Below are positions 29,572 through 47,911 of a DNA stretch of 64,000 nt, piece by piece. The position numbers were made by a program, and so were the translations under genes. The notes beneath the pieces were generated by a model that saw nothing but the letters and a program-made list of their open reading frames with translations, searched no databases and was not told where the DNA came from. How positions within the stretch are numbered: position 1 is the stretch's first letter; each line of letters begins with the position of its first letter. This DNA is from Acidimicrobiia bacterium (lineage in GTDB: Bacteria > Actinomycetota > Acidimicrobiia > IMCC26256 > JBMOIJ01), in NCBI GenBank assembly GCA_049317385.1, contig JBMOIJ010000001.1:468-64467 (forward strand), in the 5' to 3' direction.

Positions 29572-29595
29572 GCGAGCCGCCGAACATCGATTCTG

Positions 29596-31773: not shown

Positions 31774-33735
31774 CTATTCCTCGCTCGGCTGCTGGGCCAG
31801 ATAGCGCGCTTTGATTCCTGCCACCACCGCCGGGTCCGCAAGCGTGGTGGTGTCACCGAGTTGGTGATCTTCGGCCACGTCGCGCAGCAGGCGGCGCATG
31901 ATCTTGCCCGAGCGGGTTTTGGGAAGATCGTCAGTGATGAGAATCGTCTTCGGTTTCGCAATCGGTCCGATGGTCGCGCCCACGTGGTCGCGTAGCTCTG
32001 CAATGAGTTCATCACTCGCCTGGTGTCCGGCGCGCAGGATCACGAACGCCGCGATCGCCTGGCCGGTGGTCGGGTCGGTCTTGCCCACCACTGCGGCCTC
32101 TGCCACCGCCGGGTGATCCACGAGCGCGCTCTCCACTTCGGTGGTGGAGATGTTGTGCCCCGCGACCAACATGATGTCGTCGACGCGGCCGAGCAACCAG
32201 AAGTAGCCGTCGTCATCGCGCTTGGCCCCGTCGCCCGCGAAGTAGCGGCCGTCGAAGCGGGACCAGTACGTGTCCTGGTAGCGCTGAGGGTCACCCCAGA
32301 TACCACGTAGCATCGACGGCCACGGCCGCGTCAACGTCAGGTAGCCACCGCCGGGGATTCCCACGGATTCACCGTTGTCGTTCACGACGTCGGCGCCGAC
32401 ACCGGGCAACGGGAACGTGGCACTTCCCGGCTTCAACGTGGTGGCCGCGGGCAACGGGCTGATCATGATGGCGCCGGTTTCGGTCTGCCACCACGTGTCG
32501 ACCACCGGGCACCGCTCGCCACCGATGTGCTGCCAGTACCAAACCCACGCTTCGGGGTTGATGGGCTCACCCACGCTGCCCAGCAGGCGCAGGCTCGACA
32601 GGTTGTGCCGCTCCACGAACTCGGTGCCCCACTTCATGAACGTGCGAATGCTCGTGGGTGCGGTGTAGAGGATGGTGACCGCATACTTCGCGACGATCGA
32701 CCAGAAGCGGTCCTTGTCGGGGAAGTCGGGCGCACCTTCGTAAAGCACCACCGTGGCGCGGTTCGCAAGCGGCCCGTACACGATGTAGCTGTGACCGGTG
32801 ACCCAACCGCAGTCGGCCGTGCACCAGTAGACATCGGTGTCAGGGTGCAGGTCGAACACGTTGCGATGCGTGAACGCGGTCTGCGTGAGATAGCCACCGC
32901 TCGTGTGCATGATGCCCTTGGGCTTGCCCGTGGTACCGCTGGTGTAGAGGATGAACAGCAGCTGTTCCGCGTCCATCGGTTCCGCCGGGCACTCGGCCGA
33001 TTGCTGCGGCACGAGGTCGTGCCACCAGACGTCGCGCCCTGCTTCCATCGTCACGTCGTTGTTCGTTCGTTGGAACACGAGGGTCTTCTCGATGCTGGGG
33101 CACTCGGCCAACGCTTGGTCAGCGATGCCCTTGAGGTCGACGACGTTGCCCCGCCGCCAGGCCCCGTCACAGGTGACGAGCACTTTGGCTTGGGCGTCGT
33201 GGATGCGATCGCGCAACGAGTCGGAGCTGAATCCGCCAAACACCACTGAGTGCGCCGCACCAATACGCGCGCACGCAAGCATCGCAACCGGGAGTTCGGG
33301 AACCATGCCCATGTAGATGGCGACCCGGTCGCCCGTCTGCACGCCGAGGGCTCTCAACGCGTTGGCGGCGCGTGACACTTCGTCTTTGAGCTCGGCGTAG
33401 GTGATGCGCCGGTCGTCGCCGGGTTCGCCTTCCCAGAGGAACGCAACCTGGCCACCGTGGCCGGCCTCCACGTGACGGTCGACGCAGTTGTAAGACACAT
33501 TCAACTGGCCACCGACAAACCACTTCGCGAACGGCAGGTTCCATTCCAAGGTGGTGTCGAAGTCGCGCGCCCAGTGCAGGAGTTCACGGGCCTGGCGCGC
33601 CCAGAAGCCTTCGAAATCCCGCTCCGCCTCGGCGGAGAGGCTGTCGTTCGTGGGGCTGGCCGCGGCGGCTTGGAACTCGGGCGGCGGCGGGTACGTGCGC
33701 CCTTCCGCGAGCAACGACTCCAGTGCCTCGGTCAT
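31774..33735 (-). CDS. acs: Acetyl-CoA synthetase
   Basis: Trimmed to the ATG at 33733-33735 (MTEALESLLAEGRTYPPPPEF...). It has ...YTSGTTGKPKG..., ...WQTETG... and ...LPKTRSGKIMRRLLRD. Length 653 aa. Confidence 0.95.
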   Translation of the reverse strand: MTEALESLLAEGRTYPPPPEFQAAAASPTNDSLSAEAERDFEGFWARQARELLHWARDFDTTLEWNLPFAKWFVGGQLNVSYNCVDRHVEAGHGGQVAFLWEGEPGDDRRITYAELKDEVSRAANALRALGVQTGDRVAIYMGMVPELPVAMLACARIGAAHSVVFGGFSSDSLRDRIHDAQAKVLVTCDGAWRRGNVVDLKGIADQALAECPSIEKTLVFQRTNNDVTMEAGRDVWWHDLVPQQSAECPAEPMDAEQLLFILYTSGTTGKPKGIMHTSGGYLTQTAFTHRNVFDLHPDTDVYWCTADCGWVTGHSYIVYGPLANRATVVLYEGAPDFPDKDRFWSIVAKYAVTILYTAPTSIRTFMKWGTEFVERHNLSSLRLLGSVGEPINPEAWVWYWQHIGGERCPVVDTWWQTETGAIMISPLPAATTLKPGSATFPLPGVGADVVNDNGESVGIPGGGYLTLTRPWPSMLRGIWGDPQRYQDTYWSRFDGRYFAGDGAKRDDDGYFWLLGRVDDIMLVAGHNISTTEVESALVDHPAVAEAAVVGKTDPTTGQAIAAFVILRAGHQASDELIAELRDHVGATIGPIAKPKTILITDDLPKTRSGKIMRRLLRDVAEDHQLGDTTTLADPAVVAGIKARYLAQQPSEE

Positions 33736-33790
33736 GGATCCCCCCGGGTCATTCGGCTGCCGGGAGGCTAACGCTCGGGGCGGAAGGTGC

Positions 33791-34939
33791 TCAGCAGCGG
33801 TTGAACGTGAGGACGCGGTGGGCACCGAGTCCAGCGGGGTCACAGAGCGCGTCGGCTTCGTGCACGAGGCTGCGCGCCTGCAGCGCGGCCAAGTCGCCAC
33901 GAGCGCGCCCGGCGTCCCACGCCGCCGCCGCATCGGCCACGAGCGCGTCGACACCGAGTGCCTGCAACCACTCGCGCTGGGTCACGTCGCCGAACGGTTT
34001 CGCCCCCAAGCGCGCCGCGATCATCGCCACCACGTCGGTGGGCACGTCGATGGTGATGTCGTGCACCCCCGGATCGGCAAGAGGGTCGCTCCCCCGACCG
34101 TGGGCGGCATACGTGCGCAACCACGCGCGGGTCGCCAACTCTGCCGATGGTGCGCCGTAGTCGACGAACGCGAGCACGCCCCGCCGGATACAGCTCGTTG
34201 CGGTCGCCATCCAGGCACGAATGCCGGACACGACCGGAAGTCGTGCGCCCACCGCGCAGTCGGGCAGATCGGCCAGGAGGTCAGCATCGGCCGGCACCAA
34301 CACCTCCACCAACCGGTCGCCGTCGGCGCCCACGCGCACCTCGAGCCATTCATCAGCACCACGCTCGACGATGCGGAACGGCAGGTTGTCGAGCAGCTCG
34401 TTGCTGAAGAGCACTGCGTCGCGAAGACCGACCGCCGGCAGATCGGCGAGCGAGCAGGCCATCGGCCCGCGCCCCGGCTCGATCACCACCGGATCGTCGG
34501 GATCGCCCGTCTGCAGCACCGGGCCGAGGACGTCCTCGGCGCGTTCGAGGTCAACCACCGGTTCGAGGCGCGCCGCGTGCTCGGCCCGCAACGCCTCGGA
34601 CCGTTCCACCAGCACATACCGAAGCGCCGCAGCACAGCCAGGCTCGGCGCGCAGCACGTCCCGGCAGAGCCGGCCGTTGCCGGCACCAGCCTCGACCACC
34701 ACGAACGGATCGGGTTCGCCGAGGTCACGCCACCAGCCATCGAGGGCGCGCGCCACCAGCGCACCGAACAGCGATCCGACTTCGGGACTCGTCACGAAGT
34801 CGTGCCCCGCGCGCCCAGCACCGTGGCCCGACGCGAAGAACCCGCCGTCGGGGTCGTAGAGCGCCGCGTCGACGTACGCGTCGAACGGGATGGGGCCCTC
34901 ACGATGAATGCGCGCCGCAATGCGCGGGGCCAGCGTCAC
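33791..34939 (-). CDS. MidA/NDUFAF7-family class I SAM-dependent methyltransferase (DUF185)
   Basis: 382 aa: GPIPFDAYVDAALYDPDGGFFASG...GHDFVTSPEVGSLFGALVARALDGWW...VVVEAGAGNGRLCRDVL, which matches the MidA pattern. The GTG start lies 12 nt after the nuoN (copy 1) stop. Confidence 0.8.
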   Translation of the reverse strand: MTLAPRIAARIHREGPIPFDAYVDAALYDPDGGFFASGHGAGRAGHDFVTSPEVGSLFGALVARALDGWWRDLGEPDPFVVVEAGAGNGRLCRDVLRAEPGCAAALRYVLVERSEALRAEHAARLEPVVDLERAEDVLGPVLQTGDPDDPVVIEPGRGPMACSLADLPAVGLRDAVLFSNELLDNLPFRIVERGADEWLEVRVGADGDRLVEVLVPADADLLADLPDCAVGARLPVVSGIRAWMATATSCIRRGVLAFVDYGAPSAELATRAWLRTYAAHGRGSDPLADPGVHDITIDVPTDVVAMIAARLGAKPFGDVTQREWLQALGVDALVADAAAAWDAGRARGDLAALQARSLVHEADALCDPAGLGAHRVLTFNRC

Positions 34940-34951
34940 GCCGGCACCGGG

Positions 34952-36547
34952 TCAGCGCGCGCCGAGCGCGAACTTCGCGGTCTCGCCGACCCAGCCAACA
35001 AGGCCGGGGAAGACGCCGAGAACCACAGTGAGCACGATGGTGAGACCGATCGCGAAACTGACTGCCGGCTGCACCTTGACGGGCGCGGTTGCCCCCTCGG
35101 GCACATCGCCGAACACCATGCGGCGCACTGGACGCACGTAGTAATAGAACGCGATGACGCTGTTCACGGCCGCGATGACACCGAGCACCGTCGCCGCCGT
35201 AGTCCCGGCGTCGAACACTGCCCGGAACATCACGAGCTTCGCGAACCAGCCGGCCAGCGGCGGAATACCCGCGAGCGAGAACAAGAACAGCGCGAACACC
35301 ACCGTGAGCGCCGGGCTGCGCTGGTACAGGCCCGAGTAGCTGTCGATCTCAGCCGAACGGGTGACCCGCGAGATCGCGATGACACACGCGAACGCACCCA
35401 GGTTCATGACCGCGTAGATGACCAGGTAGATGAGTACCGCCTGCAACGAGCTGGAGGTGCCCTTGGTGAGCGGATTGTCGCCAGCCACCGCAAGCGGCAC
35501 CAAGATGAATCCGCCTTGCGCAACCGACGAGTACGCGAGCAGGCGCACCATGTTGGTCTGGCGGAGCGCAGTGAGGTTGCCCACGAACATCGAGGCCGCC
35601 GCCAACAGCCACAGCACCGGTTGCCACCAACGCGGCTGCTGCGCGAAGCCCAGGAACACGATGGTGGTCAGCGCAACGAAACCACCGGCTTTGGACGCAA
35701 CCGACAGGAACGCCGTGACCGGGGTGGGCGCGCCTTCGTAGGTGTCGGGAGCCCAGAAGTGGAACGGCACCGCCGAAACCTTGAACGCGAACCCGACCAG
35801 CGTGGCGAACACGGCGAAGACCCAGAGGCCCACCTGACCGCCCGAGGCTTCGGCGACCCGCGGCGCAATCTCACGCAACAACGTGGTGCCCCCGGCCAAG
35901 CCGTAGACGAGCGACATGCCGTAGAGCATGACGGCTGATGCGAGTACGCCGAACAGGTAGTACTTGAGCATCGCTTCGTTCGACTTGGTGTCGTGCTTAC
36001 GCCAACCCGCCAAGATGAAGGTGGGGATGGAGATGGTCTCGAGCGCAATGAAGATGCTGATGAGGTCACGCGCAGTGGCCATGAGCATCATGCCCAGCAC
36101 GCTGGTCAGCAGCAAGAAGTAGTACTCGCTCTGGTAGTAGTCGCCTTCGGCGATGTAATCGAGCGAAATGAACAACGTGACGTACGCAATCACCAGGAAC
36201 AACGCCTGGAACGCGAGCGCATAGCGGTCGACCACGATGGCGCCACCGAACATCACCCGCGGCCCGCGGTTACCAACGGTGTTCCACAACGTGAACACCG
36301 GAACGAGCGACGCCAACAGGCCAACCAGCGCGAGACGCGGACCGAGCACCCGCCGCTGCCGTTCGAACACAAGATCCGCGAGCAACGTGATGATCACCGT
36401 GATCGACAGGATCACCAGCGGCGAGAGCGCGTACCAGTCAAGGGGCCGGAACCCGGTGTACGCACCGGGAGCCGAAATCGGCACCGGCGCCGAGATGGGC
36501 ACCGGCGTGGCGATCGGGGCCGCTGCCTGCGCAAGGAAGTTGATCAC
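34952..36547 (-). CDS. nuoN: NADH-quinone oxidoreductase subunit N, copy 1 (EFG-less cluster)
   Basis: A 531-aa polytopic antiporter-like ORF and the last nuo gene of the cluster. GTGA overlap with the nuoM stop. The N-terminus has a tandem PVPISA repeat, so the exact start is uncertain. Confidence 0.85.
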   Translation of the reverse strand: MINFLAQAAAPIATPVPISAPVPISAPGAYTGFRPLDWYALSPLVILSITVIITLLADLVFERQRRVLGPRLALVGLLASLVPVFTLWNTVGNRGPRVMFGGAIVVDRYALAFQALFLVIAYVTLFISLDYIAEGDYYQSEYYFLLLTSVLGMMLMATARDLISIFIALETISIPTFILAGWRKHDTKSNEAMLKYYLFGVLASAVMLYGMSLVYGLAGGTTLLREIAPRVAEASGGQVGLWVFAVFATLVGFAFKVSAVPFHFWAPDTYEGAPTPVTAFLSVASKAGGFVALTTIVFLGFAQQPRWWQPVLWLLAAASMFVGNLTALRQTNMVRLLAYSSVAQGGFILVPLAVAGDNPLTKGTSSSLQAVLIYLVIYAVMNLGAFACVIAISRVTRSAEIDSYSGLYQRSPALTVVFALFLFSLAGIPPLAGWFAKLVMFRAVFDAGTTAATVLGVIAAVNSVIAFYYYVRPVRRMVFGDVPEGATAPVKVQPAVSFAIGLTIVLTVVLGVFPGLVGWVGETAKFALGAR

Positions 36548-38142
36548 TTCACTGCTTCCTGCTTGGCGCCGTTGGCGCTCGCCGACGCCGCCGGGAACAC
36601 CTTCGTGACCTCAGTGACCTTGGTGTTGGTGGTCTTGAACAGGAGGTTCGGGAAGATCCCGAGCACGACGATGAGCGCGAGCAACGGCGTCCACGCGATC
36701 CATTCCGGCACGTGGACATCGTGGAAGTGCCCCTTGGCGAACTCTTCCTTCGGCGTACCGAACGCCACGCGCTGGTACATCCAGAGGAGATACCCCGCCG
36801 CGAGCACCGTTCCAACCGCCGCCACCACCATGTAGGTGCGGAACACCGGGTCGGAGAGCGCGCCACTCGGCGAATACGCCGAGAGGATGGCCGGGAACTC
36901 GCCCCAGAAGCCGGCCAGGCCGGGCAGACCCAGCGAGGCCATGGCACTGAACCCGAGGATCCAGCCGAGGTGCGGCGTCTGGGTGAGCAGACCACCGAGG
37001 CGGTTCATGTCACGCGTGTGGTAGCGCTCCTGCACCGAGCCGGCGCAAAAGAACAGCATGCCGGTGATGAGGCCGTGCGCCACCATGCCGAAGATGGCGG
37101 CGTTGATACCGAAGCTCGTGAGCGTTGCGATACCGAGCATCACGAACCCCATGTGGGCCACCGACGAGAACGCGATGAGGCGCTTCATGTCCTGCTGCGC
37201 AAGACAGCACAACGCGCCGTAGATGATGCCGATCACCGCCAGGAGCGCGATCCAGGGCGCCCACTTCTCGGCGGCCCGCGGGAGGATGGGCAGCGCGATG
37301 CGCACGAAGCCGTAGGTACCGAGCTTCAGTAACACCGCAGCCAGGATCACCGAACCCACCGTGGGCGCTTCGGTGTGTGCGTCCGGCAGCCAGGTGTGGA
37401 AGGGGAACATCGGCACCTTGATGGCGAAGCCGAGGAACAGTCCCCCAAAGATCAACGTGGCCGTACCGATGCTGATCCCCAAGAATCCGAGCCGGGCCGC
37501 TTCGGACAGCAACGGGATGTCGAAGCTGTGCTGAGCGCCCGCCGCCACCGGGTTGACGTCGCTGAGGAAGTAGATGGCAACGAAGCCCACGAGCATGAGC
37601 GCCGAGCCGAACAACGTGAACAAGAAGAACTTGATGGACGCGTACTGCCGGTTCGGCCCGCCCCACACGCCGATCATGAAGTACATGGGCAGCAGGACCA
37701 CTTCGAAGAACACGAAGAAGAGGATGAGGTCCTGGGCCACGAACGTGCCGTTCATACCTACTTCAAGTACGAGCAGCAACGCGAGGAACGCCTTGGGGTT
37801 GTGCGGCTCAGGGAAGTGGTCCCACGAGTAGATGATCACCAACACCGAGATGAGCATGGACAACGCCAGCAACGGCAACGAAATGCCGTCGAGGCCGATG
37901 TGGTAGCGGCTGTTGATGATGGGGATCCACGACTTGTTCACCACGAACTGCAGGCGACCTTGGTCGTAGTCGAAGTTCGCGAGCAGCAAGACGCCGATGA
38001 ACGCCGTCACCAGCGTGGTGACGAGCGCGGCGATCTTCTGCCACTGCTCCTCCTTCTTGGGCAGCGCCATGACGACCACGGCACCGGCCAAGGGGATGAA
38101 CACCGCAAGGGTGAGACCCCAACCGTTGAGGAACTCCTTCAT
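36544..38142 (-). CDS. nuoM: NADH-quinone oxidoreductase subunit M, copy 1
   Basis: 532 aa with ...YHIGLDGISLPLLALSMLI... and ...PFHTWLPDAHTEAPT..., NuoM/ND4 signatures. Confidence 0.9.
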   Translation of the reverse strand: MKEFLNGWGLTLAVFIPLAGAVVVMALPKKEEQWQKIAALVTTLVTAFIGVLLLANFDYDQGRLQFVVNKSWIPIINSRYHIGLDGISLPLLALSMLISVLVIIYSWDHFPEPHNPKAFLALLLVLEVGMNGTFVAQDLILFFVFFEVVLLPMYFMIGVWGGPNRQYASIKFFLFTLFGSALMLVGFVAIYFLSDVNPVAAGAQHSFDIPLLSEAARLGFLGISIGTATLIFGGLFLGFAIKVPMFPFHTWLPDAHTEAPTVGSVILAAVLLKLGTYGFVRIALPILPRAAEKWAPWIALLAVIGIIYGALCCLAQQDMKRLIAFSSVAHMGFVMLGIATLTSFGINAAIFGMVAHGLITGMLFFCAGSVQERYHTRDMNRLGGLLTQTPHLGWILGFSAMASLGLPGLAGFWGEFPAILSAYSPSGALSDPVFRTYMVVAAVGTVLAAGYLLWMYQRVAFGTPKEEFAKGHFHDVHVPEWIAWTPLLALIVVLGIFPNLLFKTTNTKVTEVTKVFPAASASANGAKQEAVK

Positions 38143-38154
38143 CGACGTGCCCTC

Positions 38155-40248
38155 TCAGACATTCACGTTCACGAGTACGAGCGCAAGGGCGATCACGCCC
38201 ACCGCTCCGAACAACCACAGCGCGTAGCGCTGCACTCGACCTGACTCCCAGAGCCGCAGCACTCCGCCGGTTCCGTCAGTGACTTCACCGATTCCGTTCA
38301 CGGCGTTGTCGACCACGTCACGGTCGACGTAGCGATACGTGGCCCGTCCGAGCGCCGCGGCCCCGAGGCCAGCTCCCCGCACGGTTGCATCAATCACCCT
38401 CTGGTTGACCCAGTAACACGCACGCGCCAAGGGCCCCTTGATGAACCCGACGATGACGTCGGTGTAGAGCCAGTCGAGGTAGTACTTGTTCTCGAGGAAG
38501 CGGTACCCGGCCCGTGCCACGCCATTGCGCTGGGTGATGCCCTGCGGTCCCCATCTCTTCCAGTACCACGCCCAAGCGATGAAGTAGCCCAACGCTGCGA
38601 TGGCGACTGCGATGGCGGCGTTGGTGAAGCTGAACTCGACCTTGGTGATCTCGCGCACCGGGAACGTGAGGAAACCCTCCGACTCAGGCTCGATCCACTC
38701 CTTGAACTTCTCGATCTTCACCGGCGACGCATTGATCCAACCGATGAGCAGCGAGAAGACCGAAAGGATGATGAGTGGCACCGTGATGCGCTTGTTCGAC
38801 TCGTGCGGGTGGCCGTGGCCGCGATATTCGCCGAAGAACGTGAGGTACACGCAGCGGCCCATGTATGCGGCCGTCATGACGGCACCGACGAGTCCGACGA
38901 TCTCGAAGAAGAAGAACCCACCTTGGCCCGCGGCAGTGAGGATCTCGTCCTTGGACCAGAAGCCCGCCAACAACGGGAACCCAGTGAGTGCCGCCGTACC
39001 GATCATGAACGTCCAGAAGGTGACCGGCATGTACCTGCGCAGGCCCCCCATGTCCTTCTTCATGTCGAAGCTGTGGTGCGAACCGGAGTGGCTGATGGAG
39101 CCGGCGCCGAGGAACAAGTTGGCCTTGAAGAACGCGTGCGTGAAGAGGTGGAAGATGGCGCCGAGCCACGCGCCGACTCCGAGGCCCATCACCATGTATC
39201 CGAGCTGACTAATGGTGGAGTACGCGAGCACCTTCTTGATGTCGCGCTGGACGAACGCCAGCGCCGCACCGATCACGATGGTGACGGCACCGATGATGGC
39301 CATGAAGTTGAAGCCACCATTGTTGATGGAAAAGCCCTTCCAGAACACGCCGTAGAGGCGCGCTCCGAGGTACACGCCGGCAACCACCATGGTGGCGGCG
39401 TGGATGAGCGCGCTCACGGGCGTGGGTCCGGCCATCGCGTCGGGCAACCAGGTGTGCAGCGGGAACTGGCCGCTCTTGCCGATGATGCCCACCATGAGAC
39501 ATGACGCACAGGCGAGCAGCAGCAGGTGACTGGGCTTCCCGCTCAGCGCTGACGCGTTCACGGCGTCGATACCGAACGAGAACGCGCGCCCGCTGGTTGC
39601 CGCCGAAACGATGAACGGCGTGATGATCACACCGATGAGCAGACCGACGTCACCGGTACGAGTGGTGAAGAACGCCTTGAGTGCCGCGTTGGAGTTGGCC
39701 TGCTCTTCCCACCAGTGACCGATGAGCATGAACGAGCAGAGGCCGACCAGCTCCCAACCGATCATGAGCTGCAATGTGTTGCTGGCGGTGACGAGCAACA
39801 ACATCGACGCCGTGAAGAGGCTGAGGGCGGCGAAGTACTGGGTGTAACGGCGGTCGTCGTGCAAGTACTCGGTGGAGTACACGTGGACCAGGAGCGAAAT
39901 GAGCGTGACGACGAACAGCATCATCACGGTGAGACCGTCGACGTGGGTGCCGAAGTCGAACTTCACCGTGCCGTTCGACCACAGCACATAGAGCTCATTG
40001 ATGACCGGTGCGCTCTCGCGCTCATGGAACACCCGGATCCACTCGACCGCCGACCAACACGCGAACACGAACGACGTGCCCACGGCGGCGATGCCGATCC
40101 ATGAGCACTTCTCGCCCATCCGCTTGCCGAACAGCAAGATGATCCAGAACGAAACGAATGGAATGGTGAACAGCAGCCATGCGTTCTGCAGCACCCACGG
40201 CGCAGCGTGAACGACGCCTTCGGCGGCTTGTTCGGCAGCAAGGATCAC
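38155..40248 (-). CDS. nuoL: NADH-quinone oxidoreductase subunit L, copy 1
   Basis: 697 aa with ...GWELVGLCSFMLIGHWWE..., ...FPLHTWLPDAMAGPTPVSALIHAATMV... and a long C-terminal extension. Confidence 0.9.
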   Translation of the reverse strand: MILAAEQAAEGVVHAAPWVLQNAWLLFTIPFVSFWIILLFGKRMGEKCSWIGIAAVGTSFVFACWSAVEWIRVFHERESAPVINELYVLWSNGTVKFDFGTHVDGLTVMMLFVVTLISLLVHVYSTEYLHDDRRYTQYFAALSLFTASMLLLVTASNTLQLMIGWELVGLCSFMLIGHWWEEQANSNAALKAFFTTRTGDVGLLIGVIITPFIVSAATSGRAFSFGIDAVNASALSGKPSHLLLLACASCLMVGIIGKSGQFPLHTWLPDAMAGPTPVSALIHAATMVVAGVYLGARLYGVFWKGFSINNGGFNFMAIIGAVTIVIGAALAFVQRDIKKVLAYSTISQLGYMVMGLGVGAWLGAIFHLFTHAFFKANLFLGAGSISHSGSHHSFDMKKDMGGLRRYMPVTFWTFMIGTAALTGFPLLAGFWSKDEILTAAGQGGFFFFEIVGLVGAVMTAAYMGRCVYLTFFGEYRGHGHPHESNKRITVPLIILSVFSLLIGWINASPVKIEKFKEWIEPESEGFLTFPVREITKVEFSFTNAAIAVAIAALGYFIAWAWYWKRWGPQGITQRNGVARAGYRFLENKYYLDWLYTDVIVGFIKGPLARACYWVNQRVIDATVRGAGLGAAALGRATYRYVDRDVVDNAVNGIGEVTDGTGGVLRLWESGRVQRYALWLFGAVGVIALALVLVNVNV

Positions 40249-40249
40249 G

Positions 40250-40564
40250 TCAGCCCCTCAGCTGGTCGACGCGGTCAAGGTCAGAGGTCCGGAAGTTCCG
40301 GTAGATCAGCAACACGATGGCCAGACCCACGCCGACTTCGGCGGCCGCAATCGTGATGACGAAGAGCGTGAACACGATGCCCGACAGCGGTTGACCGCCC
40401 GGCGTTGCGCTGTAGGCCGAGAACGCCACCAAGTTGATGTTCACCGCGTTCAGCATGAGTTCGATGCTCATGAGCACCAGTACGCCGTTGCGGCGGGCCA
40501 GCACCCCGTAGACGCCCGTGCAGAACAGGAACGCAGCGAGCAACAAGAAGTAGTTGAGGCTCAT
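40250..40564 (-). CDS. nuoK: NADH-quinone oxidoreductase subunit K, copy 1
   Basis: 104 aa with [14 protein letters not shown] and [21 protein letters not shown] overlap with the nuoJ stop. Confidence 0.9.
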
Positions 40565-41073
40565 CAGTCACGCCTCGCAATCGCCACGGCGCCGATGAGC
40601 GCAGCGGTGAGGAGCAGGCCCAGCACTTCGAACGGGACCAACCAGCCGCGCAAGAACGTGTCGCCGATGGGCCCCGGTTGGCCAATCTGCAACGCAAATG
40701 CCGCGTCCAAGTTGATCTTCGAGCTGGCCGGGAACGCCCGCAGGATCAACACTCCCAACACGCCGAGCAGGAACACCGAAGCGATGAGACCTGAAAGCCA
40801 CTGCGAGTTGTCCTGGCTCTGGTCGCCTCGCATGGGCGCCCGCGTCAGCATGATGCCGAAGAGGAACAGCACGATGACGGCGCCGATGTAGATCAGCACC
40901 TGCACCCACGCCACGAACTCAGCCGTGAGAAGGATGTACTGCGCGGCCGCGCCGGCGAGGACCACCACCAGGTAGAGCGCGGCGTGCACCACGTTGCGGG
41001 TGGTCACGACCCGGATGGCGGCCGCAGCCATGGCGATGGCCAGCACCCAGAACACGACGTTCTGCGCGATCAC
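40564..41073 (-). CDS. nuoJ: NADH-quinone oxidoreductase subunit J, copy 1
   Basis: Trimmed to the GTG at 41071-41073, which overlaps the nuoI stop (GTGA). It reads (V)[36 protein letters not shown]..., ND6-like. Confidence 0.8.
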
Positions 41074-41567
41074 TTCTTGCCTGCCTTCTTGACTTCGGCA
41101 CCCTCTTCGTAGGGCTCCGGCTCGGGCTTGGTGGCATCCCACTCGCCGAGCTTGTCCTTGTCGTGCAGCAACCGAGCGATGGAGAACTCGGAGTACTCGT
41201 ACTCCGGGCTCCAGTGGAGGGCGTCGAACGGGCAGACCTCGACACAGATTCCGCAGTACATGCAGAGCGCGTAGTCGATGTCGAACCGGTCGAGCACGCT
41301 GACGGTGCGCTCACGCCCACCTTCGCGACGCGGCGGCCGCTTCTCCTTGTGACCTTCGATGTAGATGCACCAGTCGGGGCAGCTGCGCGCACACAACATG
41401 CAGACGGTGCAGTTCTCTTCCTGCAACCCGATCACGCCACGCGCCCGAGTAGGCGGTGCTTCTTTCTCGTGCGGGTACTGCACGGTGACCGCCGGCTTGA
41501 GCATCGTCTTGAACGTGACGCCCAGACCAGTGATGAGACCGGGGACCTTGGGAAGTTTCGGAGCCAT
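41070..41567 (-). CDS. nuoI: NADH-quinone oxidoreductase subunit I, copy 1
   Basis: Two ferredoxin motifs, [12 protein letters not shown] and [13 protein letters not shown] prefer the ATG at 41565-41567, which overlaps the nuoH stop (ATGA). Confidence 0.88.
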
Positions 41568-42604
41568 CAGCGCACCCACGCAACGATCGCGCCGGTCACC
41601 AGGATGTTCCCGAGCGCAATGGGAATGAGGTACTTCCAGGCAATGGCCTGAAGCTGGTCTTCACGGAAGCGCGGGTAGGTGAAGCGCGCCCAGAAGATGA
41701 GGAACGCCACCAACATGATCTTGGCGAACAAGACGATGGGGCCCACCACGTTCATGTAACCCGCCGACATGTCGCCCCATGGAAGCGTCCAACCCCCAAG
41801 GAACAACGTGGCGGCGATGGCCGCAAATGCAAACGCGGTACCGAACTCTCCGATGAAGAAGAACAGGAACCGGAAACCGGTGTACTCGACCATGTATCCC
41901 GAGACGAGTTCCGACTCGGCCACCGGCATGTCGAACGGCGGCTGCGTCAGTTCGGCCTGCGCCGCGATCATAAAGATCACGAACCCGATGAACTGCGGGA
42001 TGATGAACGGCAGGCCGATGCCACCCCATCCGAAGATCGATCCGTTCGACTGTGCCGCAACGATGCCCTGCAGGCTCAACGTGCCGGCCTGGATCACCAC
42101 CCCGACCACCGCGAGCAACAGCGGCAACTCGTAGGCGATGAGCTGGGCCGCTGCGCGCAGGCCACCGAGCAGTGCGAACTTGTTCGCGCTCGCCCAGCCG
42201 GCCATGAGCACGCCGATGACCGACAAGCTCGACACGGCAAGGGCGTAGAAGATGCCCATGTTGAGGTTTTCGACGACGAGCTTCGGTCCGGCGGGAATCA
42301 CGATGAACACCAAAAACGTGCTGACCAACACCACGGCAGGCGCCAACGCGAACACGCGCCGGTCGGCCCCTTCCGGCATGATGTCTTCCTTCTGGAGGAA
42401 CTTCACACCGTCGGCCACCAGCTGCAGCGTGCCGTGCGGGCCGGCCTCCATGGGGCCGAGCCGGCTCTGCATGTGACTCATCATCTTCAACAAGAAGACA
42501 TACCCGAGCACGAGTGCGCCAGTGGGCACGACGGCCAACACGACCACGGCTTTGATGATGGTGAACGACCACCATGGAAGTTCGAGCGCGAGGACAGCGT
42601 TCAC
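41567..42604 (-). CDS. nuoH: NADH-quinone oxidoreductase subunit H, copy 1
   Basis: Trimmed to the GTG at 42602-42604, which overlaps the nuoD stop. It has ...[25 protein letters not shown]...[18 protein letters not shown]..., ND1-like. Confidence 0.88.
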
Positions 42605-43782
42605 CGGTCGATGTCTCCGAGGATGAAGTAGAGCGATCCGAGGATGGTGATGATGTCGGGGACGTATACGCCCTGCAGCAACCACGGAAGGATCGAAACG
42701 TTCGAGAAGCTCGCGGATCGGATCTTTACGCGGAACGGACCGGTCGCCCCCTTCGAGACGACGTAGTAGCCCATCTCGCCGAGTGGGTTCTCGGTCTTCA
42801 CATAGAGTTCGCCCTCGGGCACCTTGATGATGCGCGGGACCTTCGCCATGATCGGCCCGGCCGGCAACTGGTCGAGCATCTGCAACACCATGCGGGCGGA
42901 CTCGCGTGTTTCCTGCAGCCGCACCCAGTAGCGAGCGAACGAGTCGCCGGCGGTGTGCGTCCAGACTTTCCAGTCGAGCTCGTTGTAGACGAGGTACTGC
43001 TCGCCATCACGGCGCAGGTCCCAGTCGATGCCACTGGCGCGCAGGTTGGAGCCCGACACGCCGTAGGAGGCGCCGAGTTCGCCGGGAATGATGCCCACAC
43101 CATCGCAACGCTTACGGAAGATCTCGTTGCCGACCACCAGGTCTTCGAACTGGTCGCAGCTGTCGAAGACGATCTTCATGACTTCGCGCGTCTCGGCGAT
43201 CCAGCCCCACGGCAAGTCGTCCTTCAACCCACCGATGCGGTTGAAGTTGGGGTGGAAGCGACCACCCGTCGCCCCCTCGATGAGGTTGAGCACGTGCTCG
43301 CGGTCACGGAAGCCGTAGAACGCCGGCGTGATGGCACCGACCTGCAGGCCCATCTCTCCGAGGAACAACAGGAACGTGGCGATACGCGACAGCTCGGTGA
43401 GAATTGTGCGGATGTACAGCGCACGCTCCGGCGCTTCGATGTCCATCAGCTTCTCGGCCGCGGCGATGAACGGCACCTCGTTGGCAAAGCTGCTGAGCCA
43501 GTCGATGCGGTTGATGAGCGTGGTGACCTGAGGGTACGTACGGAACTCGGTGAGTTTCTCGTAGCCGCGGTGCATGTATCCGATGACGGGGTCGGCGGCG
43601 AGCACTCGCTCACCGTCGAGCCGCACCACCAACCGCAACGTTCCGTGAGTGGCCGGGTGCTGCGGCCCCAGGTTCAAGATCATGTCGCCGGTGTCGAGCT
43701 CGACATTCATCTGTGCTTCGGCCAAGTGGCGCAGCGCGTTGGGGTCGAGCTCGAAGTCGGGAGCGTTGGTCACGTCGGTCAT
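42601..43782 (-). CDS. nuoD: NADH-quinone oxidoreductase subunit D, copy 1 (HRG variant)
   Basis: 393 aa with LNLGPQHPATHGTLRLVV and VIGYMHRGYEKL. ATGA overlap with the nuoC stop. nuoH follows directly, with no nuoE, nuoF or nuoG. Confidence 0.92.
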   Translation of the reverse strand: MTDVTNAPDFELDPNALRHLAEAQMNVELDTGDMILNLGPQHPATHGTLRLVVRLDGERVLAADPVIGYMHRGYEKLTEFRTYPQVTTLINRIDWLSSFANEVPFIAAAEKLMDIEAPERALYIRTILTELSRIATFLLFLGEMGLQVGAITPAFYGFRDREHVLNLIEGATGGRFHPNFNRIGGLKDDLPWGWIAETREVMKIVFDSCDQFEDLVVGNEIFRKRCDGVGIIPGELGASYGVSGSNLRASGIDWDLRRDGEQYLVYNELDWKVWTHTAGDSFARYWVRLQETRESARMVLQMLDQLPAGPIMAKVPRIIKVPEGELYVKTENPLGEMGYYVVSKGATGPFRVKIRSASFSNVSILPWLLQGVYVPDIITILGSLYFILGDIDR

Positions 43783-44393
43783 TCGCCACCTTCCTCGGCG
43801 ACTTCTTCGCCGGGCATGGGCTCGACGTCGACCAACCCTGGCCAGGGCTTCACGACCCGCGCCAGCAACGGGAAGTCCTTGCGCAACGGGTGGCCTTCGA
43901 ATTCGAACGGCAGGTAGAGCTTGCGCAGGTCAGGATGGCCGTCGAAGTCGATGCCGAACATCTCCCAGCACTCGCGCTCGTGCCAGTCGGCACCGGGGTA
44001 CACCTCGACCCAACTCTGCGCTTGCGGTTGCTGGTCGTCGACGTCGGTCTTCAGCGTGATGCCGTAGTGGTGACGCGTGGACTCGACGTGCGCGAACACT
44101 TGGAACCGACCGCTGGCGCCGGTGAGACCGGGCGTTTGCTCGGTGGGTTGCACCGGCGAACTGGTGTCGCCGCTGGTGTCGTCGCCACCTTCCTTCGGTG
44201 CGGGCATCCAGTCGATGGCCGAAACGAACGACAGGTAGTCGCAATCGAGCGCAGACTTTGCAACCTCAGCCGCCCGCCGCCACGCATCGGGCGCGACGCG
44301 CACTTCGAGCGTTCCGAACGAATCGGCATCAGCGACGATTGCGTCACCGAGTTCGGACTGCAACCGCGAGAGCAGGTCTTGTGTTTCGACCAT
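43779..44393 (-). CDS. nuoC: NADH-quinone oxidoreductase subunit C, copy 1
   Basis: 204 aa with ...YPGADWHERECWEMFGIDFDGHPDLRKL..., the 30-kDa subunit signature. A Gly/Asp/Thr/Ser-rich insertion sits mid-protein. Confidence 0.88.
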   Translation of the reverse strand: MVETQDLLSRLQSELGDAIVADADSFGTLEVRVAPDAWRRAAEVAKSALDCDYLSFVSAIDWMPAPKEGGDDTSGDTSSPVQPTEQTPGLTGASGRFQVFAHVESTRHHYGITLKTDVDDQQPQAQSWVEVYPGADWHERECWEMFGIDFDGHPDLRKLYLPFEFEGHPLRKDFPLLARVVKPWPGLVDVEPMPGEEVAEEGGE

Positions 44394-44399
44394 GACGCG

Positions 44400-44930
44400 T
44401 CACACCCCCGCCGGCTCGACCGACGGCACCACGATGGGTTCGCCCTTCCAGCGTTCGGCCGGGTTCTCGTGCTGGATGCGCTCTTGGAGTAGCACCACAC
44501 CTTGCAACAAGGCCTCGGGGCGCGGGGGACAACCGGGGATGTAGACGTCGACCGGGAGCATCTGGTCGACACCCTTGGTGACCGAATACGAGTCCCAGTA
44601 CGGACCACCACAGTTCGCGCAGCTCCCCATGCTGATGACGTACTTGGGGTCAGGAATCTGTTCGTAGAGCCGCTTGATGGCCGGCGCCATCTTGTCGGTA
44701 ACCGTGCCCGAAATGCAGATGAGGTCGGCCTGGCGCGGACTGGCCGGGAACGGAATGACACCAAGTCGCATCATGTCGTAGCGCGGCGACGCGAGTGCGG
44801 CGCCCATCTCGATGGCACAACACGCCAGGCCCCACTGGAACATCCACAGTGAGTACCGGCGGCTGGAGTTCAACAACCAAGTGAGCGGTTTGATCGGAGC
44901 CTTCCCGCTCTTGCGTGCAACTAGGCCCAC
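44400..44930 (-). CDS. nuoB: NADH-quinone oxidoreductase subunit B, copy 1
   Basis: [21 protein letters not shown] and [10 protein letters not shown] supply the cluster N2 ligands. I prefer the GTG start at 44928-44930, which overlaps the nuoA end. The start is uncertain. Confidence 0.88.
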
Positions 44931-45337
44931 TTCAACAGGCCCTTTCGCCAGTCGTAGAACAACCCGAGCAACAACACGACCATGAAGACGGCAAGCGCCC
45001 CGAAGCCGTACCAACCGAACGCGTCGACCTTCACGGCCCACGGAAACACGAAGATCGCCTCGACGTCGAAGATCACGAAGAGCAACGCAAAGATGTAGTA
45101 CCGAACGTTGCTCTGACCGAACACGCCCACCGGGTCGGAACCCGCCTCGTAAACGAGGTACTTCTGCGGCTGCGGCCGGTGAGGGCGAATGAGCCGGCCG
45201 GCACCGAGCATGGCCCCCACCATGCCGAACGCCACGAGCGTGTAGACGGCAACCGTGACGTAGGACCGGTAGTAGTCGGAGAGCGATACGTATGCGAACA
45301 CCGGCGGGGAGCCTAACCAGGGCGGTCCGGCCAGCAT
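44921..45337 (-). CDS. nuoA: NADH-quinone oxidoreductase subunit A, copy 1
   Basis: ND3-like with three TM helices: ...[12 protein letters not shown]...[23 protein letters not shown]. The start is either the ATG at 45337 or the GTG at 45370. Confidence 0.8.
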
Positions 45338-45417
45338 GAATTCATCGCCCGCCCATTTCGAAGTCCTCACGTCGACGGCAGCCCTGCCGAAACGGATTCA
45401 GTACGAGAGGGCATCCG

Positions 45418-46311
45418 ATGGACGAATCGCGAGTGGCACCAGACCGTCCGACGGTCTTCGTCCTGTCGGGCGGCGGCAATCAGGCCGTGAGCCAGGTGGG
45501 GATGCTGCGCGCCCTCTTCGAGCGCGGAATCGTCCCAGATGTCGTGATCGGAACCTCGGCCGGCGCCCTCAACGGCGCCGTGGTCGCGCACCGACCGACC
45601 ATGGACGCCGTGGATCACCTCGAAGGGGTCTGGCAGTCGATCCAGGGCAAGGAAATCTTCCCTGGGAACCGCGTCACCCGCGCCTGGAACGTGCTGCGCC
45701 GCGGCACCTCCCTCATGCCGAGCGACGGATTGGCCCAGCTCATCGACACCGTTTCGACGGCCCGCACCTTCGCGGACCTGGCCGTCCCCTTGCGCGTGGT
45801 GACCTGCGATCTCACCAGCGGGTCCGAAGTCGTGTTCTGTCGCGGACCGCTCGCGCCACCACTCCTCGCGTCCGCCGCACTACCCGGCGTGTTCCCTCCG
45901 GTGCCGTACGCCGGGCGCCTCCTCGTGGACGGCGGCGTGGTCAACAGCGTTCCCATCTCGCACGCCGCCGCAGGCAAGCCCGCCCGCATCTTCGTGTGCA
46001 ACGTCTCGGGCGGTGGCCGTCCGATGCACCGAGCCCCCCGGTCTCCGCTCGACGTGGTCATGCGGTCGTTCTCGATCGCCCGCAACCAGCGCTTCCAGCT
46101 GGAACTCGCGCACCTCCGCCACACCGCGGAGGTCACGATCCTCCCGCGCCCCACCGACGATCGCGACCTGCTCGACTTCTCAGATGCGCACCGGCTGATC
46201 GACGAGGCCTACCGCATGGCGACCGGAGTCCTCGAGCACCGCCAGCCGGTCGAAACAATGCAGCGGCCGCACCGACGGCGGGTGCCGTGGCGGCGCCGCA
46301 CCGCGGCCTGA
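45418..46311 (+). CDS. Patatin-like phospholipase
   Basis: 297 aa with VLSGGGNQAVSQVGMLRAL (oxyanion Gly-rich loop), GTSAG (GxSxG nucleophile) and LLVDGGVVNSVP (catalytic Asp). Confidence 0.88.
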   Translation: MDESRVAPDRPTVFVLSGGGNQAVSQVGMLRALFERGIVPDVVIGTSAGALNGAVVAHRPTMDAVDHLEGVWQSIQGKEIFPGNRVTRAWNVLRRGTSLMPSDGLAQLIDTVSTARTFADLAVPLRVVTCDLTSGSEVVFCRGPLAPPLLASAALPGVFPPVPYAGRLLVDGGVVNSVPISHAAAGKPARIFVCNVSGGGRPMHRAPRSPLDVVMRSFSIARNQRFQLELAHLRHTAEVTILPRPTDDRDLLDFSDAHRLIDEAYRMATGVLEHRQPVETMQRPHRRRVPWRRRTAA

Positions 46312-46327
46312 GCGAAACCCGTCGGCG

Positions 46328-47911
46328 TCAGAGCGGAAGAATCAGCGTGGCCCGGCGAGCCAGTTCGAGCGCCGGTTCGGGCAGCACGCCCATCACCAAC
46401 GTGACCGTCGCGCACACGAACAGCACGGTGCCAGTGAGCACGTCGATGCGCGCCACCTGCTGCGTACGAGTGGCGACGGCAACACTGCCTGCGGACTCGT
46501 CGGATCCTTCGGCAGCCGTGAGATCGACATCGGAATCGCGCCCGGCCCACATGGTGACCACCACCCGGAGATAGGCGAACGCCGCGATCGCGGCCGAGAG
46601 CAGACCGACCAACACGATCGCGGTCCCCCAGCCCCCGGCCCGAGCCGCCGCACTGAACACGTCGAACTTCGCGATGAAGCCGCTGGTGAGCGGCACGCCG
46701 GCCTGCGCCAACAAGAAGAACGTGAGCAGTGCCGCCAACTGCGGCTCGCGGCCAGCCAACCCGCGATAGTCGTCGAGCAGATGGCCCGAGTCGTGGCGCG
46801 TTGCGATGAGCCCCACGACGGCGAACGAACCGACCACCATGAACGCGTACGCAATGAGGTAGAAGACGGCCGACGACACGCCCTCCTTCGACGCGGCCTG
46901 CACGCCAATGAGGATGAAACCGGCGTGCCCGATCGACGAGTACGCCAAGATGCGCTTCACGTCGGTCTGCACACACGAGGCGATTGCACCCACCAACACC
47001 GTGAGGGCCGACAGCCCCCACACGATGGGCCGCCAGTCCGCACTGAAGGAGAACAGCCCCGTGTAGAGCACCCGGATCAACGCCGCGAAACCAGCTGCCT
47101 TGGTGGCCGACGCCATGAACGCCGTGACCGGTGTGGGCGCACCGTCATAGACGTCGGGCGTCCACTGGTGGAACGGCACGGCCGCGATCTTGAACCCGAG
47201 TCCCACCACCAACATGGCGATGGCAAGCAGGGGAAGGTTGTTGCGCGCCACCACGTTCTGACTGAAGAACGACGCCATGCTCGACGGCCCGCCGACCAAT
47301 CGCGTGCTGCCAGTGGCGCCGTACATCAGTGCCACGCCGTACAAGAAGATGGCCGAACTGAACGCGCCGAGTACGAAGTACTTGAGACCCGCTTCTTGCG
47401 ACTTCACCCGGCGACGGTCCAACGCCGAGAGCACGTACAGCGGAATGGACAACACCTCGAGCGCCACGAACACGACGATGAGATCGTTCGCCGTGGCCAT
47501 GGCCAACATTCCGGTGACCGAGAAACACACCAACGCCACGAACTCGGGCGCCGGTAGTTCGACCCGGCGCAGGTACGGGCCGAGCAAGAGCAACACGAAA
47601 ACGAGCGCGATCACGACCACTCCACCGATCACGATGGAAAACCGGTCGAGTGCGATCATCCCCGAGAACGTGGTGAACCCACGCCGTCCGTTCACAACGC
47701 TGCGACCGTCGAGGTTGCGCCACTGCGCGTACAACAGTCCGCCGGCGACCACGGCGCCCACAAACCCTTCGACAATGGACAACGGCACCAGGAACGCACC
47801 GCGCCGCACGAGCGCCTTCGTCATGACCACCACCAACCCGGTGGCCGCCATCGCAATGACCGGCGCAAGCGCGATCCATTCGATGCCCGGCGTGGGTACC
47901 CCGCGACTCAT
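46328..47911 (-). CDS. nuoN: NADH-quinone oxidoreductase subunit N, copy 2
   Basis: A 527-aa polytopic ORF with ...AAVPFHQWTPDVYDGAPTPVTAFMA... It is the last gene of the 14-gene operon and overlaps the nuoM stop. Confidence 0.9.
   Translation of the reverse strand: MSRGVPTPGIEWIALAPVIAMAATGLVVVMTKALVRRGAFLVPLSIVEGFVGAVVAGGLLYAQWRNLDGRSVVNGRRGFTTFSGMIALDRFSIVIGGVVVIALVFVLLLLGPYLRRVELPAPEFVALVCFSVTGMLAMATANDLIVVFVALEVLSIPLYVLSALDRRRVKSQEAGLKYFVLGAFSSAIFLYGVALMYGATGSTRLVGGPSSMASFFSQNVVARNNLPLLAIAMLVVGLGFKIAAVPFHQWTPDVYDGAPTPVTAFMASATKAAGFAALIRVLYTGLFSFSADWRPIVWGLSALTVLVGAIASCVQTDVKRILAYSSIGHAGFILIGVQAASKEGVSSAVFYLIAYAFMVVGSFAVVGLIATRHDSGHLLDDYRGLAGREPQLAALLTFFLLAQAGVPLTSGFIAKFDVFSAAARAGGWGTAIVLVGLLSAAIAAFAYLRVVVTMWAGRDSDVDLTAAEGSDESAGSVAVATRTQQVARIDVLTGTVLFVCATVTLVMGVLPEPALELARRATLILPL

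Follow-up and report, generated by a model that had tools for sequence, protein, structure and literature searches.

The window analysed here, a stretch of 64,000 nucleotides (~65% GC) from an Acidimicrobiia bacterium, carries on its minus strand at 34952-45370 eleven genes for a complex I-like enzyme, nuoABCDHIJKLMN, with no nuoE, nuoF or nuoG among them, and by its gene content this cluster is a structurally EFG-less operon of the known NUO11 kind. Together with a methyltransferase gene that follows nuoN, we read it as a unit of 12 cistrons with its own promoter, encoding a functional second respiratory enzyme that is supplied by an independent electron donor, of which ferredoxin would be the likeliest (we give this reading a probability of roughly 0.5). 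EFG-less 11-gene nuo operons are well documented, Actinobacteria included, and the headline observation is thus an ordinary one; the features that distinguish this cluster are its tandem position to a canonical 14-gene nuo operon, a dedicated NDUFAF7-like gene and a remodelled quinone site. Subunits of the 11-gene operon are numbered 2 below and those of the canonical operon 1 (NuoD2, NuoD1).

Eleven intact genes with no room for nuoEFG

Gene families were called with Pfam and NCBIfam profile models, scored against their curated cut-offs. An earlier note on this DNA had claimed eleven nuo genes here. The same number of minus-strand open reading frames (ORFs) match the respective models, running from NuoA, B, C and D to H, I, J, K, L, M and N, and every junction between them is tight:

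nuoA2, 44921..45301, minus strand: about 126 amino acids (aa) from GTG 45301, longest ORF to 45370; PF00507 1.7e-30; 10-nt overlap with nuoB2
nuoB2, 44400..44930, minus strand: 176 aa; NF005012 214 bits against a cut-off of 116; 6-nt gap to nuoC2
nuoC2, 43779..44393, minus strand: 204 aa, with a low-complexity insertion and an acidic tail; PF00329 4.6e-36; ATGA overlap with nuoD2
nuoD2, 42601..43782, minus strand: 393 aa, short-form; PF00346 1.6e-79; NF008974 end to end, 430 bits, below the cut-off of 522; GTGA overlap with nuoH2
nuoH2, 41567..42604, minus strand: 345 aa; NF004741 316 bits against a cut-off of 305; 1-nt overlap with nuoI2
nuoI2, 41070..41567, minus strand: 165 aa, with a charged C-terminal tail; family models and two CxxCxxCxxxCP motifs; GTGA overlap with nuoJ2
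nuoJ2, 40564..41073, minus strand: 169 aa; PF00499 7.9e-36; 1-nt overlap with nuoK2
nuoK2, 40250..40564, minus strand: 104 aa; NF004322 133 bits against a cut-off of 128; 1-nt gap to nuoL2
nuoL2, 38155..40248, minus strand: 697 aa; NF005141 595 bits against a cut-off of 556; 12-nt gap to nuoM2
nuoM2, 36544..38142, minus strand: 532 aa; TIGR01972 571 bits; GTGA overlap with nuoN2
nuoN2, 34952..36547, minus strand: 531 aa; TIGR01770 390 bits against a cut-off of 332.6

The NuoD ORF ends with GAC ATC GAC CGG TGA (stop at 42603-42601) and nuoH starts with GTG at 42604-42602, giving the GTGA overlap at 42604-42601 that had been reported; the alignment of the NuoH model begins where GTG 42604 predicts. 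Because stop and start overlap there is no room for nuoE, nuoF or nuoG between them, and their absence is a matter of gene structure, as the same note held. Nor do any extra small subunit genes fit in the operon, since its junctions are so tight. NUO14 enzymes have NuoE, NuoF and NuoG encoded with the Q-module, which is not the case at 34952-45370, these genes being found only in the separate operon upstream.

The cofactor sites that the note had described were all recovered. NuoB2 keeps the ligands of cluster N2 (C37, C38, C104 and C134, in CC...GSCANCGG...GCPP) and NuoI2 keeps both of its 4Fe-4S motifs, and so the 4Fe-4S sites N6a and N6b (NuoI2) and N2 (NuoB2) of the Q-module are complete by sequence. 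NuoH2, NuoK2, NuoL2, NuoM2 and NuoN2 each score above at least one curated NCBIfam cut-off, and the residues expected of a proton pump are in place: the Glu of transmembrane helix (TM) 5, the Lys of TM7 and the His of TM8 are retained in all three antiporter-like subunits, together with the TM12 Lys in NuoL2 and NuoN2 and the TM12 Glu in NuoM2, while NuoK2 has both membrane glutamates (E34, E75) and NuoH2 retains the acidic motif of the quinone channel and E-channel (AELTQPPFD...ESELVSGY). NuoD2 has the N-terminal motif RIDWL and no NiFe-ligand Cys at either the N- or the C-terminal site; these lost cysteines tell it apart from the Ech, Mbh and Hyc hydrogenases, and the MBH and FHL chains score just 146 and 132 bits. 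With Q-module and P-module both complete, a coupled, proton-pumping menaquinone reductase would be the default reading.

Conservation and a probable promoter of its own

Relatives of NuoD2 at 69-86% identity were fetched with their surroundings from 80 genome loci, on which all window proteins were mapped; the loci come from Acidimicrobiia or unclassified Actinomycetota only, including Desertimonas flava, Ilumatobacteraceae, Microthrixaceae and sponge symbionts. In 77/77 related loci the gene right after nuoD2 is nuoH2, and the absence of EFG is kept across the class Acidimicrobiia. For six of the seven subunits compared (H, I, J, L, M and N) the protein of the 11-gene operon is more conserved than its 14-gene counterpart from the same genomes (for example 69% against 59% for NuoM and 56% against 48% for NuoN), NuoK being the only one slightly less conserved. 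The clade has thousands of metagenomic homologues and is abundant in soil, freshwater and sponge metagenomes.

An alignment of upstream regions revealed a TTGnCn-N17-TAnnCT element ahead of nuoA2, which is conserved in relatives with and without the patatin gene that lies upstream in the window, and which is present even where nuoN1 ends only ~100 nt away. In the window it takes this form:

Promoter-like element of the 11-gene operon, 45310..45340, minus strand: TTCATG (-35-like) at ~45340-45335 and TAGGCT (-10-like) at 45315-45310

This points to a conserved promoter belonging to the 11-gene operon itself, its function being deduced from the alignment. It was recognised only through the comparison of relatives; a generic scan of 33500-46500 returned nothing promoter-like, and its terminator-like sites were about as frequent as expected by chance. 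The -10-like hexamer stands 8 nt ahead of GTG 45301, with the same geometry in several relatives, which suggests that the nuoA2 mRNA is leaderless or near-leaderless and places the start of nuoA2 at 45301, in agreement with the NCBIfam NuoA alignment, which starts near residue 29 of the long ORF. The cluster limit of 45370 given previously is therefore right as the start of the longest nuoA2 ORF, but GTG 45301 is the likelier start of the gene.

Boxes resembling the operator of the redox-sensing repressor Rex (GTGAA-N4-TTCAC, 0-1 mismatch) were found within 150 nt of nuoA2 in 12/71 relatives (loci L025, L027, L031, L040, L042, L044, L055, L057, L060, L061, L070 and L077), where ~0.4 would be expected from their density over all loci (an enrichment of ~30-fold), and they often lie between the -35 and -10 elements. 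In the window itself, neither TTGTGAAN4TTCACAA (up to 3 mismatches) nor TGTGAN6TCACA (up to 1) occurs upstream of nuoA2 or nuoA1, and the core GTGAAN4TTCAC (up to 1 mismatch) has sites only at 19865, 24128 and 33574, none of them at a nuo promoter. In Streptomyces, nuo operons are known to be under Rex regulation (PMC5355995).

A deep lineage of short NuoD proteins

NuoD1 and NuoD2 are 39% identical and have different solved relatives. NuoD1 matches Mycobacterium smegmatis NuoD best (440 bits), whereas NuoD2 scores highest with Thermus thermophilus Nqo4 (332 bits) and cyanobacterial NdhH (328 bits) and reaches only 255 bits with the M. smegmatis protein. NuoD2 is without two segments, 25 residues in total, around the canonical '...EALIHHFKLFTEGF' stretch, and because of this its alignment to canonical models is split in two; the shorter references (the NuoD model NF008974, with 366 positions, FpoD, MBS and MBH) align with it from end to end. 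An exhaustive search over 1.84 billion cluster representatives placed two full-length neighbours closest outside the clade, at 58% and 51% identity, with all others at most 45% identical. All five short-form representatives with readable context (P0121, P0131, P0133, P0136 and P0140) have nuoD followed by nuoH, and in the sole long-form representative checked (P0154) nuoE comes after nuoD. By these comparisons NuoD2 belongs to a deep 'short NuoD' lineage, and, since all of the short-form relatives that were checked go from nuoD to nuoH, the absence of EFG is probably ancestral to this lineage and not a local deletion. A recent tandem duplication of the 14-gene operon with later loss of EFG was considered, and is ruled out by the 39% identity, the different best structural relatives and the short-form architecture.

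Two observations were made at the edges of this comparison. The closest outgroup locus (L083; NuoD 58% identical, nuoABCDHIJK...) has a heliorhodopsin gene at 3795-4598, ~1.2 kb upstream of nuoA. Two loci from Dermatophilaceae/other Actinomycetales (L081 and L082) carry at 10001-11143 a lone gene for a 380-aa NuoD-like protein, with HRGAE, RHDWL and a degenerate first motif 'PAGHPAGHG'; it stands beside a cytochrome P450 gene, amid nadB/nadC-like and folate genes, with no other nuo gene nearby.

The canonical operon in tandem

The earlier note had found no candidate electron-input gene in the flanks and only a divergent patatin gene upstream, and in both it was mistaken. The end of a tightly packed canonical nuoA-N operon lies 16 nt past the patatin stop, on the same strand as the 11-gene operon (46328-61754), and it includes nuoE, nuoF and nuoG ~9-13.5 kb upstream of nuoA2:

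nuoA1, 61290-61754, minus strand
nuoB1, 60709-61290, minus strand
nuoC1, 60115-60690, minus strand
nuoD1, 58841-60118, minus strand
nuoE1, 58341-58844, minus strand
nuoF1, 57028-58344, minus strand
nuoG1, 54362-57031, minus strand
nuoH1, 53145-54365, minus strand
nuoI1, 52495-53148, minus strand
nuoJ1, 51857-52495, minus strand
nuoK1, 51537-51860, minus strand
nuoL1, 49476-51536, minus strand
nuoM1, 47908-49479, minus strand
nuoN1, 46328-47911, minus strand
Patatin-like phospholipase gene, 45418..46311, plus strand: PF01734; divergent from nuoA2 and convergent with nuoN1

This operon is the sole source of NuoEFG in the window; NuoF1 has the flavin mononucleotide (FMN) and 4Fe-4S domains and NuoG1 the 2Fe-2S, 4Fe-4S and molybdopterin-like domains. 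The tandem is found in 38/61 informative loci, in both the 81-86% and the 72-75% identity groups, and no 14-gene nuo gene stands directly upstream of the cluster in the other 23. The patatin gene is present in only 14 related loci and absent from many relatives, in which the distance from nuoN1 to nuoA2 is often just 97-170 nt, and by this comparison it was inserted between the two nuo operons.

Beyond the canonical operon, a gene for a MauE/DoxX-like membrane protein (61860-62245, minus strand) lies between nuoA1 and rex, which scores above its NCBIfam cut-off as the redox-sensing repressor. The divergent rex is followed by hemA (the N-terminus of glutamyl-tRNA reductase, running off the window end), the two together at 62277-63999 on the plus strand, presumably in the same order as in the Streptomyces rex-hemACD operon.

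A methyltransferase gene and its predicted target

The twelfth cistron, which the earlier note missed, opens 12 nt after the nuoN2 stop in the same direction:

NDUFAF7/MidA-family S-adenosylmethionine (SAM)-dependent methyltransferase gene, 33791-34939, minus strand: 382 aa, GTG start; PF02636 (Methyltransf_28), E = 1e-34

The protein reaches 120.5 bits against the PF02636 cut-off of 23.3 and has the SAM-binding motif VVEAGAGNG. Its relatives in the PDB are 1ZKD (DUF185), 4F3N (COG1565) and 5ZTZ (the Dictyostelium NDUFAF7 homologue), and its homologues at JGI are named 'NADH dehydrogenase [ubiquinone] 1 alpha subcomplex assembly factor 7' or 'MidA family methyltransferase'; to Dictyostelium MidA it is only distantly related (E = 1.5e-12, N-terminal part only). 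The gene follows nuoN2 in 44/56 informative loci. A gene for an acetate-CoA ligase (31774-33735, minus strand) lies 56 nt downstream of it, with the same neighbour in 10 related loci, and may be co-transcribed with it or merely syntenic.

Mitochondrial NDUFAF7 symmetrically dimethylates the Arg of the HRGxE motif of NDUFS2, 3.7 Å from cluster N2, and this modification occurs also in Paracoccus but not in E. coli, while Thermus has Thr at that position (PMC3829151, PMC8042128). NuoD2 has HRGYE, with this residue as Arg72, in 81/81 locus orthologues and 120/120 database homologues, whereas NuoD1 has HTGME, with Thr in place of Arg, in 119/120 homologues. Since it is the Arg-bearing NuoD whose operon carries the methyltransferase gene, we infer that the enzyme matures NuoD2 specifically; NuoD1, having Thr at that position, could not be its target. 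The mitochondrial system is alike in its PF02636 enzyme and its HRGxE Arg next to N2 (Arg85 of NDUFS2), but the gene here is bacterial and stands within the operon of an enzyme that lacks the N-module, the NADH-oxidising part made of NuoE, NuoF and NuoG, and its activity and substrate are predicted. In the literature searched, nothing relevant was found that linked bacterial MidA, COG1565 or DUF185 to nuo operons, nor any description of the contrast between Arg (NuoD2) and Thr (NuoD1) at the site methylated by NDUFAF7.

A remodelled quinone pocket

Mapping of NuoD2 on T. thermophilus Nqo4 gave the residues of its quinone site:

Nqo4 His38, NuoD2 His46: kept
Nqo4 Tyr87, NuoD2 Trp95: replaced
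Nqo4 Asp139, NuoD2 Gln147: replaced
Nqo4 Asp401-Pro402, NuoD2 Tyr385-Phe386: replaced

Of the canonical quinone-site residues His38, Tyr87 and Asp139, NuoD2 thus keeps only the His, while NuoD1 has Tyr, Asp and Asp at the three replaced positions. Trp95, Gln147 and Tyr385 (W/Q/Y) are invariant in 80-81 of 81 orthologues. Among the cluster representatives Y/D/D is dominant (41 short forms, 21 long forms), and W/Q/Y is confined to the NuoD2 clade, its nearest neighbours having W/E/D and W/E/F; no description of the replacement was found in the literature searched. Since the NUO11 family is defined by its gene set, this pocket is a departure within the family and no ground for exclusion from it. 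The pocket may well work differently from the canonical one, Tyr385 perhaps standing in for the lost tyrosine, and may also resist inhibitors intrinsically: Tyr87-to-Trp is seen in NuoD of piericidin-producing Streptomyces and position 401 is a known site of piericidin resistance (Degli Esposti, PMC4758237), and a passage of the same paper reports lower decylubiquinone activity and strong rotenone/DQA resistance for Y87W laboratory mutants.

The electron donor

On the reading that we prefer, electrons would enter at NuoI2 from a dissociable low-potential donor, most likely reduced ferredoxin by analogy with other enzymes, and not from an enzyme-bound NuoEFG; they would travel by way of N6a, N6b and N2 and reach menaquinone in the remodelled pocket, where Tyr385 might do the work of the lost tyrosine, and quinone reduction would drive proton pumping through NuoH, A, J, K, N, M and L. 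During assembly the co-transcribed methyltransferase would dimethylate Arg72 of NuoD2 (HRGYE), next to N2. Ferredoxin is the accepted or proposed donor of other N-module-less enzymes (PMC11238625, PMC3144371); for the NUO11 kind, Willemin et al. (2024; PMC11238625) still treat the donor as an open question. The points that favour an independent donor are the deep EFG-less ancestry, the short form of NuoD, the cluster's own promoter and the 23/61 loci with no 14-gene nuo operon directly upstream, and on these we consider such a donor slightly more likely than borrowed NuoEFG.

Several points weigh against this. Ferredoxin is named as donor purely by analogy: neither the scanned ORFs of the window nor the conserved neighbours in the 80 loci include a gene of the ferredoxin, flavodoxin, FrhB/FpoF-like or hydrogenase type, and the earlier note's statement that the donor is unknown still stands. 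Beyond the 14-gene nuo operon, the methyltransferase, acetate-CoA ligase and patatin genes, no family recurs in more than 5 of these loci; the neighbours that do recur (DegV, STAS, a Na+/H+ exchanger, inositol-phosphate synthase, TetR, Fpg, LigB and DUF6049) are not redox proteins. Among redox genes, conservation next to the cluster is limited to the 14-gene operon with its nuoEFG, and the Rex-like boxes of the 12 relatives suggest that expression of nuoA2 is tied to the NADH/NAD+ ratio. In model enzymes, according to literature cited in a passage of PMC4758237, replacement of Tyr87/Asp139 abolishes normal quinone reduction, and quinone reduction at the remodelled NuoD2 site is an assumption, as methylation of Arg72 is a prediction. 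All of the evidence is genomic and the organism is an uncultured metagenome-assembled genome; a literature search for Acidimicrobiia and nuoEFG together found nothing.

The alternative that survives best, although we think it doubtful, is that the eleven genes encode an alternative Q+P 'chassis' which recruits NuoE, NuoF and NuoG of the adjacent operon, so that a single NADH-oxidising set would serve two NADH:menaquinone oxidoreductase isozymes that differ in quinone site and N2 environment. The same-strand nuoEFG genes close by, the tandem in most informative loci with its often short nuoN1-nuoA2 distance and the lack of any other conserved candidate partner gene around the 80 loci all speak for it, as do the Rex-like boxes, which suggest control by NADH/NAD+, and there is a precedent in Syntrophobacter fumaroxidans, where a single nuoEFG set accompanies duplicate copies of the remaining genes (Spero et al., PMC4453560). 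The earlier note had named nuoEFG paralogues elsewhere that co-purify with this membrane arm as evidence that would overturn its view, and of this one half is found, in that the genes exist, close by, and adjacent in 38/61 loci. On the other side, the checked members of the NuoD2 lineage never have EFG in the operon, and NuoD2 is without a segment of ~25 residues present in the canonical N-module-binding NuoD sequences compared; at only ~39% identity between the Q-module paralogues a conserved docking surface for NuoG seems doubtful. The cluster also has its own promoter, there is no Rex box at the nuo promoters of the window, the 23 loci with no 14-gene nuo gene directly upstream would have to be explained and adjacency may be mere inherited synteny.

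A broader and rather unlikely proposal joins the three lines of evidence into a distinct Acidimicrobiia subclass of N-module-less complex I, which would have a W/Q/Y site with its tyrosine relocated to a C-terminal loop, an N2 environment dependent on an operon-encoded NDUFAF7-type methyltransferase, and an interchangeable Q+P chassis using shared NuoEFG or another donor. If it is true, the organism would have a natural two-engine respiratory entry point, with one engine intrinsically insensitive to toxins of the piericidin and rotenone class.

It is quite unlikely that the enzyme is primarily an inhibitor-resistant spare engine, a back-up entry point, whatever its donor, whose Trp95/Gln147/Tyr385 confer insensitivity to piericidin-/rotenone-class toxins of competing actinomycetes and myxobacteria. 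The change of Tyr87 to Trp as in piericidin producers and resistant mutants, the piericidin-resistance site at 401 (as passages of PMC4758237 describe them), the invariance of the three residues and the abundance of the clade in soil, freshwater and sponge metagenomes agree with this, but the same mutations severely cut quinone reductase activity in model enzymes, and resistance may be a side effect of another catalytic design. The substitutions are fixed in an old class-wide clade and not patchy as an arms race predicts, neither a toxin gene cluster nor a resistance context accompanies the operon, and the missing N-module and the methyltransferase are left unexplained. Inhibitor resistance as such is compatible with either an independent donor or shared NuoEFG.

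Still more improbable is an enzyme that is no forward quinone reductase, and which would instead use the proton-motive force for a menaquinol-dependent reduction of a low-potential carrier, or have a non-quinone acceptor. The change of Y/D/D to W/Q/Y, where nearly all other representatives of either the short or the long form keep Y/D/D or a close variant, and an N2 environment unlike that of the canonical paralogue (Arg against Thr) would fit such a role, but the His38 equivalent, the NuoH channel motif and all pump residues are kept, which is what a normally coupled quinone enzyme should show, and the cluster has neither an acceptor nor a donor gene linked to it. That the cluster is a decaying or silent duplicate of a complex I operon, which the earlier note had listed as a possible refutation and which has nothing in its favour beyond the missing nuoEFG, can safely be dismissed, being contradicted by 12 intact ORFs with tight junctions, intact cofactor ligands and pump residues, the conservation of NuoD2 over 80 genomes and thousands of metagenomic homologues, subunits mostly more conserved than their canonical paralogues and a conserved promoter.

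Comparison with known enzymes

Enzymes of the NUO11 kind were described by Moparthi and Hägerhäll, who counted Actinobacteria among the hosts and found no common partner protein (PMC3144371), and also by Degli Esposti (PMC4758237); the statement in the earlier note that 11-subunit enzymes are known, in some bacteria among others, agrees with this. The cluster shares with them the order nuoABCDHIJKLMN with nuoD leading directly to nuoH, the lack of NuoEFG, the N2, N6a and N6b ligands, the absence of NiFe ligands in NuoD, the full set of antiporter-like subunits and the open question of the donor. It differs in its tandem position with a canonical 14-gene operon, in its co-operonic NDUFAF7-family methyltransferase gene and in its W/Q/Y triad, against the Y/D/D of 41 of the short-form representatives compared. 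The partial nuoAHJKLMN operons of marine actinomycetes (PMC6676996) were set aside as a match, since they are without B, C, D and I.

Cyanobacterial and chloroplast NDH-1, which has ferredoxin as its donor, is alike in having no N-module; NdhH is among the best solved matches to NuoD2, and the top NCBIfam match of NuoN2 is an NdhB-type model, though below its cut-off. However, NdhH is long-form and keeps Tyr87, NDH-1 genes are scattered, and NDH-1 needs NdhS, NdhV and NdhO for ferredoxin binding, none of which was found here. With the NdhH, NdhI, NdhJ and NdhB-type models all below their cut-offs, the cluster does not fall within cyanobacterial NDH-1.

Archaeal Fpo/Fqo and the FpoF-less, ferredoxin-dependent Fpo-like enzymes also have a short-form D subunit (the alignment of FpoD with NuoD2 runs from end to end) and an input module that is encoded elsewhere or absent, and some archaeal NuoCD relatives likewise have Trp at the Tyr87 position. 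The cluster is not one of these either: none of the FpoC, D, H, I, J, K and L models comes near its cut-off (354 against 600 for FpoD), no FpoF-, FpoO- or FrhB-like ORF was found among the scanned window ORFs, and the host is an actinobacterium, presumably using menaquinone rather than methanophenazine.

Canonical actinobacterial complex I (M. smegmatis NuoA-N, PDB 8E9G, and here the neighbouring operon) has the same 11 core Q- and P-module subunits, and the two operons of the window, in the same organism, have very similar GC content at third codon positions (GC3). The canonical enzyme is set apart by its long-form NuoD with HTGME, Tyr87, Asp139 and Asp401 (NuoD1 and NuoD2 being only ~39% identical) and by an operon that includes nuoEFG.

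The donor of bacterial NUO11 is a long-standing question, and a lineage in which NUO11 and NUO14 are adjacent in most genomes and apart in others offers a natural test of N-module sharing against independent donors. If confirmed, the Arg of NuoD2 with its NDUFAF7-like gene, set against the Thr of NuoD1, would make a clean bacterial system for the effect of dimethyl-Arg on N2, a question which to our knowledge is at present studied only in mitochondria. An abundant, conserved clade without the 'invariant' Tyr87 and Asp139 would, if confirmed, challenge the generality of the quinone-site model and may mark natural inhibitor resistance. Experiments are feasible because the cluster is present in cultured relatives, among them Desertimonas flava (locus L065) and Ilumatobacter.

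Other features of the window

An Rfam scan of the whole window found only four tRNA genes, at 26966-29676, and nothing near the 11-gene operon. The region 1-26644 holds conserved housekeeping genes, among them L10, L1, L11 and NusG from the family scans and EF-Tu-, EF-G- and rpoC/rpoB-sized ORFs assigned by size alone, with a gene for a P-type cation ATPase between L11 and NusG (23065-25752). Between L10 and L1 a 393-aa ORF of high GC3 (18047-19228, minus strand) has no Pfam match, and a 463-aa ORF, also of high GC3 (30355-31746, plus strand), has only a weak partial match to TrwC relaxase (E = 1.5e-8).

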